This document shows positions 2,787 to 34,906 of a stretch of 64,000 bases of DNA, piece after piece; position 1 is the first letter of the stretch, and every line of letters begins with the position of its first letter. Where the stretch lies: the NCBI GenBank assembly GCA_030645495.1, contig JAUSLV010000011.1, forward strand, positions 256,659-320,658, in the 5' to 3' direction. The DNA is from Actinomycetota bacterium. GTDB taxonomy: Bacteria > Actinomycetota > Acidimicrobiia > Acidimicrobiales > Ilumatobacteraceae. The translations under genes and the position numbers were made by a program. A model generated the notes under the pieces. The model did not search any database. It worked only from the letters and a program-made list of their open reading frames with translations, and had not been told where the DNA came from.

Positions 2787-3364
2787 TGGGCCTGGTCGCT
2801 GCTTTTCGCCACGTCGCAACTGCGCTCGAAGCAGCAGCAGTCGACTACGTGGTCGTCGGATCAGCAGCCGCAGCAGCCTGGGGTGTGATTCGCTCCACCC
2901 GAGACATCGATCTGGTGATGGTGGTGACGGAAGGTTCGGCCGCCGCGTTGTTGGAAGGTTTGATCGACGCCGACTTCTATGTCCCCGTCAACGCGGCCGC
3001 CGAAGCACTTGCCGGCGGAGGATCGTTCAATGTCCTGCACCCGGCCACGGGTGGGAAGGTCGACGTCTTCGTCTGCCCGGCGAACGACCAGTTCGAGGTC
3101 CAACGCATTGCGCGCCGGGTTCGGATGGAGGTGTTCGGCGTCGGCTCTTGGGTTGCGACACCAGAGGATGTGGTGTTGTCGAAACTCCGTTGGCGGCTCG
3201 AATCGCAATCCGACGTGCAATGGCGCGACTGCGTCGAGCTTGCTGCGGTGCACACCCTCGACCGCAGGCATCTTCGCGTGTGGGCCGAGCGCCTCGGGAT
3301 CACTCCCGACCTCGACGCGTTGCTCGATCAGGTCGACACCGCTGGTGGCGGCGCTACCAGCTGA
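2786..3364 (+). CDS. nucleotidyltransferase-fold protein (GrpB/UPF0157-like or MNT/MenT-like), 192 aa
   Basis: The sequence VVVGSAAAAAWGVIRSTRDIDLV fits the hG[GS]x9-13DhD nucleotidyltransferase motif. The C-terminal PEDVVLSKLRWRL resembles GrpB. The protein ends ...GGGATS* in the second copy of the repeat. Confidence 0.6.
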   Translation: MGLVAAFRHVATALEAAAVDYVVVGSAAAAAWGVIRSTRDIDLVMVVTEGSAAALLEGLIDADFYVPVNAAAEALAGGGSFNVLHPATGGKVDVFVCPANDQFEVQRIARRVRMEVFGVGSWVATPEDVVLSKLRWRLESQSDVQWRDCVELAAVHTLDRRHLRVWAERLGITPDLDALLDQVDTAGGGATS

Positions 3365-3373
3365 GCCGGGCCA
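3348..3373. repeat. Direct repeat copy 2 (GGCGGCGCTACCAGCTGAGCCGGGC)
   Basis: It is an exact 25-nt match to 2450..2475. It spans the 3' ends of the nucleotidyltransferase gene (+) and of the GNAT gene (-). Confidence 0.9.
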
Positions 3374-4367
3374 ACGCCTCGCCCTCCACCACGTCGCCGG
3401 TGGGCACGAACCCGAAGCGGAGGTAGAGGGGCCGCGGGCTGCCGACGTGTTCGCGGTACGACACGGTGAGGCTGCGAGCGCCGGCCGCCTGGGTGCGCTC
3501 GGCCACCAGTTGCAGTACCTGTGTGCCGATGCCGCGCCGTTGGTGCCGACGGTCGATGAGCAGGCGCCACAGATATGGCTCGTCGGTGAGGTCGTTGCGA
3601 TCCGCCAATTGCACGAAGCCCACCGGCTCGCCATCGGCCTCGATGCCGAGCGACTGCGACACGAATGGCAGGCCGCGTACCTGTAGTGGCACCGCTGCCT
3701 GGGCGAGCGATGCCTCCACCGGGCGCACGAACCGTTGTTGCGAGTGGTGTGTCGCCAATGCCAGGTACGCATCGATGTTGTCGCCATCGAGGGCGACCAA
3801 CCGAACACCGCTCGCCGGCGACAGGGTGCGCTCGCGCCATGCCGCGCGCTGCGGGGCGAGGAGCGAGTAGCGCAGGTCGTCGACCCAGTCGCCGCCGGAG
3901 ATGAACGCATCGTGCACCAGCGACTCGAACTGGAACCCCACCGACTCGACCACCCTCATCGACGCGACGTTGCGCGGGTCGAGCGACGCCTCGAACCGGT
4001 GCACGCCGTGTGCGCACAGCGCATCGACCACAGCGGCAACAGCCTCGCCGGCGAAGGCGTGGCCCTGATGGGCGCGAGCGATCGTGTACCCGACCGTCGC
4101 TGTGCGGCCGTCGACCGACAGGCCGACCGCGACGTCGCCCACCATCTGCCCTGCGTGGTCGACCGCCAACTGCACCCACACCCCTGGTGACGGACCATTG
4201 AGTGCCTCCTGGCTGGCGGCCAGCGCATCCCCGTGACCCTCGGTGTAGGGGAGCGGCCAGTCCTGGTAGTGAGCGACTTCTGTGTCGTTGCGGTAGCCGA
4301 CGAAGGCGGGCAGGTCGGCGGCGCGCAACATCCGCACCGTCAGCCTGGTCGTGTGCAGCGGGAGCAT
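3354..4367 (-). CDS. tandem-GNAT N-acetyltransferase (two GNAT domains)
   Basis: Two acetyl-CoA binding cores are present, including RRGIGTQV, plus a RimL-like N-terminal domain. The supplied ORF extends to 4793 but that part is antisense to uvrB. A start at 4367 or 4400 is chosen. Confidence 0.7.
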
Positions 4368-4393
4368 GACGCGACGATAGCGATGGCACGGCA

Positions 4394-4407
4394 CGAACAT
4401 CCGTTCG
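4394..4407. promoter_or_regulatory. candidate LexA/SOS box CGAACATCCGTTCG (GAAC-N4-GTTC palindrome) immediately upstream of uvrB
   Basis: It matches the actinobacterial SOS-box core TCGAAC-N4-GTTCGA. It lies in the divergent GNAT/uvrB intergenic region. Confidence 0.45.
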
Positions 4408-4415
4408 GCGCTATC

Positions 4416-6443
<2,028 letters not shown>

Positions 6444-6446
6444 GCG

Positions 6447-8114
6447 TCAGACCGCGTTGGCCAGCGGCGCCGACATCATCGGGCCCAGCGAGCCGGCCGG
6501 CTGGGGGACCGCAAACAGGTAGCCCTGGCCCAGCGTGCAGCCGATGCCCACCAGGTGCCCTCGCTGCATCTCGGTCTCGATGCCCTCGGCCACCACGGTG
6601 AGGTGGCCCTTCGTGGCCACTTCCACCATCGCCTGCACCACCGTGCTGGCGCGGTCACCAGCAACCACCTGGGCGGTGAATCGCCGGTTCAGCTTCACGC
6701 CATGGATCGGAAGCGCCGACAGCGTCTCCAGCGAGGCGAACCCCGAGCCGAAGTCGTCGAGCATCAGTTGCACGCCGAGCTCACTGACCTGTGCCAGTTC
6801 TTGGCGCAGTTGCACGGGCAGGTCGGACGCCTGGCGTTCGCTGATCTGCACCATCACGGACCCCGGCCGAATGTCGTGTTTGGCCAGACCTTCGACGATC
6901 GAGTCGAGCACGCTGGTCTCGACCTGTTTGTCGAACTCGAACGTCACGGCCAGCTGGAGCGAGGGGGAGATGTGGCGGAACTCACTGAGCACCGAGAGCC
7001 CGTCGTCGAGCATGCGAACGAACAGCGAACGCAGCAGTCCGGCTTCGCGCAGGGTCGGCAGGAACTCGTCGGGTCCGCGGACGCCTTCGTTGGTCTGCCA
7101 CCTGGCCAGCGCTTCGATCGCCATCACCTCGCCGGAGTGCAGGTTCACGATCGGTTGGAAGTAGGCCTTGATCTCGCCCGCTTCCATTGCATCGACGAGC
7201 GCTGCGGTGTCGGCGGATTTGGCCGTGTCGGTCTCCAGCGGGTGGCGAGTGCTGTCGATCGCGGCTTCTGCGGCGGCGAGTGCGCCACCGAGCCCGGTCT
7301 CGGGTCGGCGTCGGCCGACACCGGTGGCAACCGCCGTGCCCACCACGCCGACCCTGCCGAGTGCCTCGTGAATGCTGCGTGTGAGGCGCTCGGTCGCTTC
7401 TTCGTCGACGCCGATCAGGAGGGCGCCGAACCGATCGCCGGTGAGGCGTGCGGCGTAGTGCCGGCCGGTCAGTACGGCTCGTACTGCAGCGCCGGCGATA
7501 CGCAGTTCCTCGTCACCGGCCGAGTGGCCGTGGAGCTCGTTGTAGTGCTTCAGCTCGGTCAGCTCGATGACGATCACCGATGCCTGCTCGCCGAACTCGA
7601 GGCAGAAGTGGTCGTCGACGCGGACCCGACGCTCCCACCCTTGGCGAGTGCCGAGGCCGGTGAGCGGATCGGTCTCGCCGTCGGCGATCTCGTTGAACCG
7701 ATGCTGGTCGGCGAGGAGGATCTCCGTGTCGGCGAGGGCGCCCAGCAGACTGGCGAACACCTGCAGGGTGGGGGCGATGCTGGCGATGCTGGCCGCCCGC
7801 TCGCGCGGGTCGAATCCGACGAGCTCGCCGAACGGGCTGCCGTCGGGGCACCGCACCGGTGCGCACGCCCAGTGGTCGCTGCTGCGGCTGATCGGGGCGG
7901 GGAGTGTCTCGTGTACGTGAATCTCGCCACGTGGGTCGAACACCGCAAGGGTGTAACTGCCCTCCGCGTCGTACCGGCACAGTGCCCACGTTCCGAGATC
8001 GGAGTGCTCCGAGAGGTGTTGGAGTACGGCCTGCGTGGCGCGACCGAAGTTGCTGTCGGTGCTTGCGCCGATGCTCATGTACTTACTATCGGTGCCGATC
8101 ACGCCCAACTTCAA
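6447..8114 (-). CDS. signalling protein with sensor N-terminus, degenerate GGDEF (TGDRF) and intact EAL domain (likely c-di-GMP phosphodiesterase)
   Basis: [15 protein letters not shown] opens the GGDEF domain and [11 protein letters not shown] replaces RxGGDEF. The EAL domain shows YFQPIV, EALARW and DDFGSG motifs. Confidence 0.75.
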
Positions 8115-8158
8115 CTGAACTTGAAGATTTCCGCAGAGAGTGAAGACCCCACCGGGGG

Positions 8159-8171
8159 GAACACGTGTTCG
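8159..8171. promoter_or_regulatory. candidate LexA/SOS box GAACACGTGTTCG about 90 bp upstream of uvrA, in the divergent region shared with the GGDEF/EAL gene
   Basis: It is a perfect GAAC-N4-GTTC palindrome with a G on the 3' side. Confidence 0.4.
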
Positions 8172-8258
8172 TGCTGCGTGCTATCCTCTGGATCGTGGTG
8201 TCGCACACCCGGTTCGTTCCCAGCTTCGTCCGCCTCGTCGATCGGTAGCCTCCCGCCC

Positions 8259-11129
8259 ATGCCCCCTGCACCCGAAGCCAAGATCATCGTCAGGGGAGCG
8301 CGTGAGCACAACCTGAAGAACGTGAGCGTCGATCTGCCGCGCGACCGGCTGATCGTGTTCACCGGGCTCTCGGGGTCGGGGAAGAGCAGCCTGGCGTTCG
8401 ACACCATCTACGCCGAGGGTCAACGCCGCTACGTCGAATCCCTCAGCGCGTACGCCCGGCAGTTCCTCGGCCAGATGGACAAGCCCGATGTCGATGTGAT
8501 CGAGGGCCTCTCGCCGGCCATCTCCATCGACCAGAAGAGTGCCAGCCGCAACCCCCGCTCCACCGTCGGCACGATCACCGAGGTCTACGACTACCTGCGG
8601 CTGCTGTTCGCCCGCGTGGGCGTGCAGCATTGCCCCACCGACGGCACGCGCCTGCAGCGGCAAACGCCGTCGCAGATCGTCGATCGCATCTTATTGTTGC
8701 CCGATGGCACCCGCTTCCAAGTGTTGGCCCCCGTGGTGCGCGGGCGCAAGGGCGAGTACAGCACCCTGCTGGAAGACCTCGTGGCGCAGGGCTTCGTGCG
8801 CGCCCGTGTCGACGGCGAGGTGGTCGACATGGCCGAGTTCCTCAAGCGCGACGAGAAGCTGGCCCGTTACGAGCAGCACAAGATCGAGATCATCGTCGAT
8901 CGGCTGGTGCGTCGCGACGGCATCGAGCGGCGCCTCACCGACTCGCTGGAGACCGCCCTCAAGCTGGCCGACGGCGTTGCCGAGGTCGAGCTGGTTGCCC
9001 GCGACGATGCCGGTGTCGACACGGTGGAAGGCGAAACGCTCACGTTCAGCCAGCACCTCGCCTGCCCCAAGTGCGGCACCAGCTTCGACGAGCCGGCGCC
9101 GCGCAACTTTTCGTTCAACTCGCCCTACGGTGCGTGCGAGGCGTGCCTCGGCCTGGGCACCACGTTCGAGGTGGATCCCGAACTGCTGATCCCCGACCCC
9201 GACATGTCGATCAACGGCGGCGCCATTGCCCCATGGCGCACCAGCAACACGCAGTACTTCACGCGCATGCTCGAGGCAGTGGCGCACGAGTACGGGTTCG
9301 ATCTCGACAAGCCCTACCGCTCGCTCACCGCCAAGCAGCAGAAGATCGTGATGCACGGCGTCGATGGCAACCTGAAGGTGAAGTACAAGAACCGCTACGG
9401 CCGCGTGCGCGAGTACTCCACCGCGTACGAAGGCGTGGTGCCGTGGCTGAACCGTCGCCGCGAAGGTGCCGAGAGCGACTGGGCCCGCGAGCAGTACGAG
9501 GGCTACATGCGCGAGGTTCCGTGCCCGAAGTGCAACGGCGCGCGGCTCAAGCCCTCCACGCTGGCGGTCACCGTGAACGACAAGAACATCGCCGAGGTGT
9601 CCGAGATGTCGATCGGCGAGTCGTCGGCGTTCCTTGCCGGCCTCGAGCTGGGCGAGCGCGATCGGTTGATCGCCGAGCGCGTCACCAAGGAGATCAACGC
9701 CCGCCTCGGCTTCCTGCTCGATGTCGGGCTCGACTACCTGTCGCTCGCCCGTTCGGCGGGCACGTTGGCCGGCGGCGAGGCGCAACGCATTCGCCTTGCC
9801 AGCCAGATCGGCAGCGGCCTGGTGGGCACGCTCTACGTGCTCGACGAACCCTCGATCGGCCTGCACCAACGCGACAACCGGCGCCTCATCGACACGCTGC
9901 TGCGGCTGCGCGACCTGGGCAACACCGTGTTGGTGGTCGAGCACGACGAAGACACGATTCGCGAGGCCGACTGGCTGGTCGATATCGGGCCCGGCGCCGG
10001 CGAGCACGGTGGTGAGGTGGTGTACAGCGGCCCGGTGAAGGGCGTCCTGAAGGTGAAGGAATCGATCACCGGCCAGTACCTCAGCGGCAAGCGCAGTGTG
10101 CCCGTGCCGCAGCAGCGGCGCGAGCCCGGCCTGCAATGGCTGGAGATCAACGGCGCCCGCGAACACAACTTGCAGAACCTCAACGTGAGGCTGCCGCTCG
10201 GCTGTTTCGTCGCGATCACCGGGGTCAGTGGCAGCGGCAAGAGCACGTTGGTGCGCGACATCCTGCTGCCCGTGCTGATGCAGCGGATCTACAAGTCGAA
10301 GTCGGCGGCTGGCAAGCACAAGAACATCAAGGGCATCGAGTTCCTCGACAAGGTCATCGACATGGACCAGTCGCCCATCGGCCGCACACCGCGCAGCAAC
10401 CCGGCCACGTACATCGGGGTGTTCGACAACATCCGCAAGCTGTTCGCCACCACCGCCGAGGCCAAGGTGCGCGGCTACATGCCCGGCCGGTTCAGCTTCA
10501 ACGTGGCCGGTGGCCGCTGCGAGGCCTGCTCGGGCGACGGCACGATCAAGATCGAGATGCACTTCCTGCCCGATGTCTACGTGCCGTGCGAGGTGTGCAA
10601 GGGCGCGCGCTACAACCGCGACACGCTCGATATCCAGTTCAAGGGCAAGAACATCGCCGAGGTGCTCGACATGCCGGTGGCCGAGGCCGTCGACTTCTTC
10701 AGCAACCAACCGGCCATCCACCGCCACATGCAGACGCTGATGGACGTGGGGCTGGGCTATGTGCGCCTCGGCCAATCGGCGCCCACGTTGTCGGGTGGCG
10801 AGGCACAGCGCGTGAAGCTGTCCAGCGAGTTGGCCAAGCGCAACACCGGCCACACCATCTACCTGCTCGACGAGCCCACCACCGGTCTGCACTTCGAAGA
10901 CGTGCGCCGCCTGCTCACCGTGCTGTCGCGGCTGGTCGACCAGGGCAACACCGTGCTCGTCATCGAGCACAATCTCGACGTGATCAAGACCGCCGACTGG
11001 GTGGTCGACCTCGGCCCCGAGGGCGGCAGCGGCGGCGGGTTGGTGATCGCCGAAGGCAGCCCCGAGGCCGTGGCCAAGGTTGCCGCCAGCCACACCGGAA
11101 GGTTCCTACGGCCGCTGCTCGAAGGTTGA
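8259..11129 (+). CDS. uvrA: excinuclease ABC subunit A
   Basis: The N-terminus [22 protein letters not shown] is typical, and two ABC ATPase modules and zinc-finger CxxC pairs are present. The supplied ORF from 6555 is an upstream antisense extension. Confidence 0.93.
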
Positions 11130-11160
11130 CGCTCGGCTGGCTTCCGTCTACCTTGGTGGC

Positions 11161-11361
11161 ATGGTTACGAAGACGGCGCTCAACATCGACAAGGAGAAGG
11201 TGCGGCGCGCCGCTGAGGTGCTGGGCACCAAGGGCACCACTGCCACCATCGACGCGGCCCTCACCGAGATCATCGTCCGCGAGGGTCGTGCCCGGTTGCT
11301 CGACCGCATGCGCACGCTCACCGACGAAGAGGCCGGCGCCATCCTCCACAGCTGGGACTGA
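11161..11361 (+). CDS. vapB: type II antitoxin VapB-like
   Basis: This 66-aa protein begins MVTKTALNIDKEK. Its stop and the vapC start overlap (TGATG). Confidence 0.65.
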   Translation: MVTKTALNIDKEKVRRAAEVLGTKGTTATIDAALTEIIVREGRARLLDRMRTLTDEEAGAILHSWD

Positions 11362-11774
11362 TGGCCACCCACCTGATCGACAAGTCGGCGTGGGTGCGGC
11401 TGCGTCATCCCGAGGTGCTGCACCGGCACAGCGAAGCGCTGCTCGCGGGGCGGATCGCGAGTTCAGGAGTGCTGATGCTGGAGGTGTTGGTGTCGGCACG
11501 TTCCGCTGCCGACTTCGATGATGTTCGTCTCAACCTGTCGCTGATGCCGCGCGTGGCGGTCACGGAAGCGCTCATCGATCGTGCGCTCGACGTGCAAGGG
11601 CTGATGGTGCGTGCCGGGACACATCGCGCCGCGTCCCCGGCCGACCTGGTGCTGGCCGCGTGCGCCGAGGCGAACGGCCTGACAGTGCTGCACTACGACA
11701 AGGACTTCGACCTGATCGCGGAAGTGACGGGGCAGCCCACCGAGTGGATCGCTCCGCAAGGCTCGCTCGCGTGA
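11361..11774 (+). CDS. vapC: PIN-domain ribonuclease toxin VapC
   Basis: A PIN fold is indicated by HLIDKS and DLVLAACAEANGLTVLHYDKDF. It lies immediately after the small antitoxin gene. Confidence 0.7.
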   Translation: MATHLIDKSAWVRLRHPEVLHRHSEALLAGRIASSGVLMLEVLVSARSAADFDDVRLNLSLMPRVAVTEALIDRALDVQGLMVRAGTHRAASPADLVLAACAEANGLTVLHYDKDFDLIAEVTGQPTEWIAPQGSLA

Positions 11775-28431: not shown

Positions 28432-28515
28432 GTCGAAGTGGCGGAATAGGCAGACGCGCTAGCTTGAGGGGCTAGTGAACTTAGGTTCGTGGGGGTTCAA
28501 GTCCCCCCTTCGACA
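28432..28515 (+). tRNA. tRNA-Leu (anticodon GAG), type II with long variable arm
   Basis: The acceptor stem pairs GTCGAAG with CTTCGAC. The D-arm is TGGCGGAATAGGCAGACGCG. The anticodon loop ttGAGgg sits on a CTAGC/GCTAG stem. A long variable arm and the T-arm GGGGGTTCAAGTCCCCC are present, with discriminator A and no encoded CCA. Confidence 0.9.
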
Positions 28516-28601
28516 CACTGTTTCTGCTGCGGCCGTCCTTCGGGGCGGCTGTTGCGGTTTTCGAGTGCGGGAGTTGACGGCGCCGGCCTGCGGTGGGCCG
28601 G

Positions 28602-34878: not shown

Positions 34879-34906
34879 GTCGCGAACGGTAGTTCGCGTC
34901 GGCAGA

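Follow-up and report, generated by a model that had tools for sequence, protein, structure and literature searches.

A predicted LexA-type SOS operator of uvrA in the divergent gap between uvrA and a GGDEF/EAL gene in an Acidimicrobiia lineage

The window analysed here (the whole stretch of DNA, 64 kb in length, with a G+C content of 68%) carries uvrB and uvrA on the plus strand and, between them on the opposite strand, a GGDEF/EAL gene that is convergent with uvrB and divergent from uvrA (Table 1). The gap between the start codons of uvrA (ATG 8259, +) and the GGDEF/EAL gene (ATG 8078, -) is 180 nt, and the GAAC-N4-GTTC palindrome that a preliminary description of this DNA had reported in the gap is indeed located there. 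With its flanks the palindrome reads GGGAACACGTGTTCGT, and the 13-mer named in that description, GAACACGTGTTCG, covers 8159-8171. Its distance to uvrA, given before as about 90 bp, is 88 nt when measured from the end of the box to ATG 8259.

Table 1. Coordinates of the genes, predicted promoters and palindromic sites in the window
Feature	Position	Strand	Description
LexA-type SOS box (predicted)	8159-8170	.	GAACACGTGTTC; perfect 12-bp palindrome; best PWM match in the window
uvrA	8259-11129	+	956 aa; Pfam UvrA_DNA-bind, UvrA_inter, ABC_tran
Predicted distal uvrA promoter, P1	8179-8187	+	Extended -10 TGC-TATCCT (TGCTATCCT); TGnTAnnnT kept near the box
Predicted proximal leaderless uvrA promoter, P2	8246-8251	+	-10 TAGCCT, 7 nt before ATG 8259; without LexA box
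P1 transcript leader with candidate leaderless uORF	8195-8248	+	Starts with GTG, ends at TAG; 17 codons, in a frame other than that of uvrA
GGDEF/EAL gene	6447-8078	-	543 aa; N-terminal sensor-like domain, degenerate GGDEF and EAL (Pfam)
Predicted leaderless GGDEF/EAL promoter	8085-8114	-	-35-like TTGAAG (8114-8109), 18-nt spacer, -10-like GATAGT (8090-8085)
Sister SOS box of uvrB (predicted)	4395-4406	.	GAACATCCGTTC; second-best PWM match; conserved in relatives
uvrB	4425-6443	+	Leaderless, GTG 4425; box, 5 nt, -10 TATCAT (4412-4417), 7 nt, GTG
Exact site	28477		'Box' GAACTTAGGTTC inside tRNA-Leu(GAG), 28432-28516
Exact site	34884		28-nt gap between a kinase-like (EcKL/APH) gene and an enoyl-CoA hydratase gene; PWM 12.9 bits
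Exact site	49014		Inside a gene

ATG 8078 is almost certainly the true start of the GGDEF/EAL gene. From there the gene encodes 543 aa, a sequence identical to that of a MAG protein annotated at NCBI (P0001), and the orthologues obtained by word-indexed protein search and contig look-ups (45-85% identity) measure 536-612 aa, mostly 540-546 aa, when they span the full query. TTG 8114, the mechanical ORF start to which the preliminary description had counted its distance of about 45 bp between box and c-di-GMP gene, is the beginning of a conserved -35-like TTGAAG; with the start at ATG 8078 and not at TTG 8114, the box therefore lies 80 nt from the gene. The predicted promoter of the gene is leaderless, with 6 nt between GATAGT and ATG 8078. 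Its elements, CCGATA(g/c)n-N6-start and the plus-strand (A)CTTCA(A/G/C)C, are kept in L161, L163, L164, L171, L174 and L176 and at the EAL gene of L002. Upstream of this promoter, a back-to-back CTTCAA-N6-TTGAAG (8109-8126) and AGAGAGTGA (8134-8143) are conserved, and the pattern (A)CTTCAnC...CTTGA(A/C) recurs in all orthologues, including that of L174, which has no uvrA beside it; the region may serve the GGDEF/EAL gene as an activator or operator site.

The encoded protein has a degenerate GGDEF motif (TGDRF). When its EAL domain was aligned to RocR (3sy8), three residues were found to be replaced (N233 by T, E265 by Q and D318 by N, RocR numbering), and E175, R179, E268, D295, D296, K316, E352 and Q372 were found to be kept. 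T at N233 and Q at E265 occur only in P0001 and P0002, and N at D318 occurs also in P0003-P0005; N233 and E265 are retained in the more distant GGDEF/EAL orthologues. The conserved catalytic and metal residues of RocR, according to Rao et al. 2008, reportedly are E175, N233, E265, D295, D296, K316 and E352, and the RocR mutagenesis literature is said to have found these EAL residues essential. The three active-site changes, together with the degenerate GGDEF, thus make an active phosphodiesterase doubtful in this lineage, and the window protein probably binds or senses c-di-GMP instead of hydrolysing it.

The palindrome belongs to the GAAC-N4-GTTC class, as does the LexA motif of Streptomyces venezuelae, tCGAAC-N4-GNNCGa, for which a ChIP-seq peak and an SOS box have been found at uvrA (PMC9380542). 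When compared with (t)CGAAC-N4-GTTCG(a), GGGAACACGTGTTCGT matches all 8 core positions and 9 of the 12 specified consensus positions, and it departs from TCGAAC/GTTCGA in its 5' flank, which is GG and not TC/CG. The consensus derived from uvrA-upstream boxes, cGAAC(A/G)nn(T/C)GTTCg, is the published actinobacterial LexA motif. We then compared the abundance of exact sites with expectation: the window contains 5 against 0.83 expected. Apart from the uvrA box, these are the site upstream of uvrB, one in a tRNA-Leu gene, one that is intragenic and a low-scoring intergenic one (Table 1), and three of the five are probably chance occurrences. At the intergenic site, GCGAACGGTAGTTCGC (34882-34897) forms a near-perfect 16-bp palindrome 5 nt upstream of the enoyl-CoA hydratase ATG (34878); it is probably due to chance, because its PWM score is not above shuffles.

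To score the sites, a symmetrised position weight matrix (PWM) was built from 15 boxes that precede uvrA in other Acidimicrobiia and Nocardioides, all from loci outside the GGDEF/EAL-uvrA clade. In the scan of the 64 kb, which the preliminary description had suggested, the uvrA box ranked first (18.6 bits) and the uvrB box second (18.1 bits); the window-wide maximum over 200 shuffles had a mean of 12.8 bits and a 95th percentile of 17.3 bits. A repeat search of the intergenic region added nothing. Across 80 species-level actinobacterial loci, with the upstream region defined as the 350 nt before uvrA, the upstream regions (26.9 kb in total) contained 16 exact boxes and the other 762 kb contained 10, an enrichment of about 45-fold across the 80 genomes (Poisson P ~2e-21). 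The uvrA loci with an exact box comprise 11 further Acidimicrobiia, 4 labelled Nocardioides/Marmoricola and 1 Streptomyces.

An exact-sequence look-up of the window UvrA returned no record; its closest relatives are encoded by Acidimicrobiia MAGs labelled Acidimicrobiaceae, Ilumatobacter or Ilumatobacteraceae, with at most 86% identity. The uvrB / GGDEF-EAL (opposite strand) / uvrA block is kept in L161 (73%), L164/L165 (56%), L171/L172 (55%), L173 (50%), L176 (46%) and L177 (45%), and the gap between uvrA and the GGDEF/EAL gene is also covered by the short contigs L163 and L167-L170. In a metagenome scan with the GGDEF/EAL protein, relatives reached at most 36% identity (38% over one short fragment), and none was adjacent to uvrA. 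In an alignment of 8 orthologous intergenic regions, GAAC...TGTTCGT is invariant, while mean column identity is only 51%; L177 has the box in addition to these 8 lineages, so the LexA-type core near uvrA assigned before is conserved in orthologous uvrA upstream regions. The central 4 nt of the box vary (ACGT, AGGT or GTCT, and GTGT in L177). The variable centre between invariant GAAC/GTTC arms with a 3' CGT therefore matches the pattern of LexA half-sites and not a CACGTG site. Two relatives, L001 and L176, have uvrA without the box, so the site is dispensable in some lineages. For L001, the gene upstream of uvrA was considered as a GGDEF/EAL orthologue and discarded, tblastn giving it no support.

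Taken together, the match to the LexA motif, the statistical excess and the conservation suggest that the palindrome is most likely an actinobacterial/Gram-positive-type LexA SOS operator that belongs to uvrA. No lexA was detected by tblastn with an E. coli LexA query in the window or in any fetched locus, and it is from literature on the order that the repressor is expected in this genome: LexA and RecA have been reported for marine Acidimicrobiales genomes (PMC10205998).

The position of the box relative to uvrA-directed promoter elements was compared across relatives. A TGnTAnnnT facing uvrA lies 6-12 nt downstream of the box in 9/9 lineages; in the window, the extended -10 begins 9 nt and its hexamer 11 nt after the box, and the centre of the box is at about -30 relative to the predicted P1 transcription start site (TSS), 8195. 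The hexamer itself varies (TATCCT, TAGCGT, TATCGT, TACGGT, TAGACT, TAACGT and TAGATT). In L164 and L173 just 6-7 nt separate this box-adjacent -10 from the uvrA ATG, and uvrA is predicted to have one leaderless promoter there, whose spacer/-35 region holds the operator. The window clade and L177 have an additional 64-85 nt in between, and in them a second -10 (TAGCCT; TAACCT in L177) is located 7 nt before the ATG. TAGCCT-N7-ATG is kept in the window clade and in relatives without box or leader (L001, L002, L004, L173 and L176), and this proximal -10 is the sole promoter-like element in the box-free relatives L001, L004 and L176. L014, L016 and L177 also have such a tandem, with the box promoter distal and a leaderless promoter proximal to uvrA; in the first two it appears independently. 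Generic sigma-70 promoter and terminator scans of 7950-8400 and 6200-6800 returned nothing and are uninformative for -35-poor actinobacterial promoters.

From this -10 geometry we read the window as having two predicted uvrA promoters, P1 (start at ~8195) and P2 (start at 8259). This reading fits the promoter data of mycobacteria, in which (T)ANNNT is located at -6 to -13, 24% of transcripts are leaderless, the leaderless set is enriched in DNA-metabolism genes, and 14% of leaderless genes have an additional leadered transcript (PMC6448022). The box would overlap the core promoter of the predicted P1 only and is 75 nt from the proximal -10 TAGCCT, and repression therefore hinges on the predicted distal promoter being real. 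We infer from the motif and from this geometry that LexA is the binding protein and that it acts as a repressor: a LexA dimer on the box would cover the -35/spacer region of P1, and after DNA damage RecA-stimulated LexA cleavage would release P1, giving a transcript from ~8195. P2, which the box does not overlap, would yield a leaderless uvrA mRNA. Since P2 is clear of the box, UvrA is proposed to be made at a basal level with an SOS-inducible increment. The operator thus most likely renders one of two uvrA promoters DNA-damage-inducible, which would be an ordinary arrangement. In L002 (3714-4000), L003 and L171/L172, UvrA carries a Lys/Pro/Thr-rich N-terminal extension of 20-100 aa that begins directly after the box promoter.

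Parts of the predicted operator and promoter layout have counterparts in known systems. The predicted operator resembles the uvrA SOS box of S. venezuelae (PMC9380542) in its half-sites, its 4-nt spacer, its target uvrA and its position in the promoter region, and in not being the box closest to consensus, which fits a high basal level. It differs in belonging to an uncultured, Ilumatobacteraceae-like lineage of Acidimicrobiia, in its 5' flank GG, and in lying at a predicted extended -10 promoter that is distal to a second, leaderless one. The E. coli SOS box in the uvrA-ssb gap overlaps the -35 of uvrA, at a distance of 170 nt from ssb (Brandsma et al. 1983; review in PMC9505508). Here, too, one box lies in a divergent gap, on a predicted uvrA promoter and far from the other coding region, and the neighbour has its own box-independent promoter or promoters; however, the E. 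coli motif is of the CTG-N10-CAG class, the neighbour here is a GGDEF/EAL gene, and whereas ssb has a distal LexA-sensitive promoter, the GGDEF/EAL gene has no visible box-adjacent one. For E. coli uvrB, Sancar et al. 1982 (Cell) are said to have described a lexA-repressed and a lexA-independent promoter. The layout predicted here is likewise that of a nucleotide excision repair (NER) gene with tandem promoters and a LexA site on one only, which would give basal plus inducible expression; unlike in E. coli, the gene concerned is uvrA, the promoter next to the gene would be leaderless, and a start codon, possibly that of a uORF, would open the transcript from the distal one.

The possibility raised in the preliminary description, a DNA-damage-regulated c-di-GMP phosphodiesterase, would require the single LexA site to act as a shared divergent operator with control over the GGDEF/EAL gene too, so that DNA damage is linked to c-di-GMP signalling. 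The uvrB / GGDEF-EAL / uvrA arrangement, kept down to 45% protein identity, favours it, as does the compact gap of L173 and L177, in which the box is just 38 nt from the GGDEF/EAL start and beside its -35 region. There is precedent in the common SOS box of E. coli uvrA and ssb (PMC9505508), and in silico prediction has placed LexA sites at a c-di-GMP-degrading gene of Dinoroseobacter shibae (PMC6473078). The geometry of the window argues otherwise. The box centre is ~86 nt upstream of the GGDEF/EAL start codon, which is also the inferred TSS; on the minus strand between box and GATAGT there is no TAnnnT and no TA dinucleotide, leaving GATAGT as the sole -10-like element facing the gene. The distance from box to GGDEF/EAL start drifts from 38 nt (L173, L177) through ~80 nt (window clade) to 91-105 nt (L164, L171), and is ~132 nt at the EAL gene of L002, whereas that from box to uvrA -10 stays within the range given above. 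In L174/L175 the orthologue is convergent with uvrB, has no uvrA upstream and keeps its promoter elements without an N4 box. Given the spacing fixed to the uvrA -10 and the box-free L174/L175, the box tracks uvrA, though not in every lineage: L176 has uvrA divergent from the GGDEF/EAL gene yet lacks the box. The degenerate GGDEF and the three missing EAL active-site residues count further against a regulated phosphodiesterase. Shared control is accordingly unlikely in our estimate, and only in the compact L173 and L177 could one site plausibly touch both promoters; the other option that the preliminary description had left, a box serving uvrA only, is favoured by the box-to-uvrA -10 geometry.

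Two further explanations concern the regulator itself. The palindrome might be bound by another dimeric helix-turn-helix regulator as a CACGTG-centred inverted repeat, with which the departing flanks and the failure of tblastn to find lexA would agree; however, invariance is limited to the GAAC/GTTC arms and the 3' CGT, with a varying centre, and the motif also precedes uvrB, and uvrA in distant Actinobacteria, both of them classical SOS genes. We consider such a regulator very unlikely. It is more improbable still that the palindrome is a chance or non-regulatory structure and that any damage induction of uvrA proceeds through the LexA-independent PafBC / RecA-NDp route, an alternative actinobacterial response to damage. 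About one GAAC-N4-GTTC per 64 kb is expected, and the probable chance sites named above show that exact matches do occur; chance is nevertheless excluded for the uvrA box by the conservation and the enrichment statistics. As for PafBC, the mycobacterial RecA-NDp motif is tTGTCRgtg-8 nt-TAnnnT (PMC5656591), a RecA-NDp-like TGTCACAC-N8-TAnnnT precedes uvrB in other Acidimicrobiia, and the window has GGTGTCGCAC at 8197-8206. This candidate was rejected, since TAnnnT is not found at 8 nt: the hexamer 8 nt after TGTCGCAC (8199-8206) is CGTTCC, and TAGCCT is 39 nt away. The motif is thus not in functional register at uvrA, nor is it at uvrB of the window. The preferred reading remains a LexA operator of uvrA.

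In four Acidimicrobiia loci (L010, L011, L013 and L020), TGT(C/T)nCAn-N8-TAnnnT, a motif similar to the mycobacterial RecA-NDp/PafBC promoter, precedes a leaderless uvrB that lacks a LexA box. This suggests that the regulator has changed from lineage to lineage. The uvrB and uvrA genes are directly adjacent only in L011 and L020, with a gap of ~300 nt in L013 and ~950 nt in L010; upstream of its own uvrA, L010 carries an exact LexA box, and L013 one with a single mismatch.

The uvrB gene of the window, 3.8 kb upstream of uvrA, has its own box over a leaderless promoter, so both NER genes are proposed to be co-induced. This form of the uvrB box is kept in six relatives (L161, L164, L171, L174, L176 and L177). 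The box is located in a 57-nt divergent gap (4368-4424) that faces a tandem-GNAT acetyltransferase gene (3354-4367, -), and it is 15 nt from a -10-like TATCGT (4374-4379, -), itself 6 nt before the GNAT gene ATG 4367. The GNAT-uvrB divergence is kept in L161, L164, L171 and L174. An ORF at 3328-4389 (-) was also considered as the gene divergent from uvrB and discarded, as it had no Pfam match; the real gene is 3354-4367 (-). This layout makes the uvrB box a more promising candidate than that of uvrA for an SOS operator serving two genes.

At their other ends, uvrB (stop ending at 6443) and the GGDEF/EAL gene (stop 6447-6449) converge with a 3-nt gap, which is 18-190 nt in relatives. With the stop codons 3 nt apart and no terminator-like hairpin found between the two genes, a route by uvrB read-through is open, and such read-through would be antisense to the GGDEF/EAL mRNA. 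A bolder reading of the locus would take the uvrB / GGDEF-EAL / uvrA block, which is kept across Ilumatobacteraceae-like genomes, as a functional unit in which DNA damage also alters expression of a c-di-GMP sensor/effector gene, or would invoke a LexA-controlled uORF. The former could come about directly, through a shared LexA box in the compact L173 and L177 (38 nt); indirectly in the window lineage, through divergent transcription from a derepressed uvrA P1; or through SOS-induced uvrB read-through into the convergent GGDEF/EAL gene. We regard this reading as unlikely, and the link from SOS to c-di-GMP, which would be the interesting part, is unsupported at this locus.

The uORF in question is a candidate in the leader of the predicted P1 transcript. 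Its GTG is 7 nt after the P1 -10, and it stops at the TAG of the P2 -10 TAGCCT, which leaves 10 nt to the uvrA ATG; uvrA is not preceded by a Shine-Dalgarno sequence. A start codon 6-7 nt past the P1 -10 and a stop at TA(G/A) of the P2 -10 are shared by the window, L161, L163, L168, L171 and L177, with an addition of 21 nt (7 codons) in L171 and the form ATG...TAA in L177, while the peptide is poorly conserved. This arrangement speculatively hints at translational coupling to uvrA, and we do not present it as a finding; if true, a leaderless uORF under LexA control, with its stop codon within the -10 of the promoter that follows, would couple uvrA translation on the long transcript. The P1 start codon of L014 and L016 shares the reading frame of uvrA, and the two in-frame leaderless uvrA starts would yield a long and a short UvrA. 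A riboswitch or attenuator in the 64-nt leader was also considered and dropped: Rfam reported no family in 7900-8500, and folding of the leader RNA gave no more structure than shuffles (z = +1.1).

Our search of the literature found no described SOS regulon for this Acidimicrobiia lineage. On comparative evidence only, the predicted operator carries the classical LexA-uvrA/uvrB circuit over to an uncultured freshwater/soil lineage, and is thus a new lineage for a classical SOS operator, known biology with some promoter-architecture detail. Within the class, the detail points to turnover: the box is on a single leaderless uvrA promoter, or a box-free second promoter has been added, or the box has been dropped, and some relatives with adjacent uvrB-uvrA have a PafBC-like motif before uvrB instead. 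The result is of use for annotating SOS regulons in MAGs and leaves knowledge of the SOS response itself unchanged. Directly downstream of uvrA (11047-11774), a small ORF and a PIN-domain gene form a VapBC-like toxin-antitoxin pair, followed by an MFS transporter gene, and the order uvrA / VapBC-like pair / MFS transporter gene is also found in L161 and L176.
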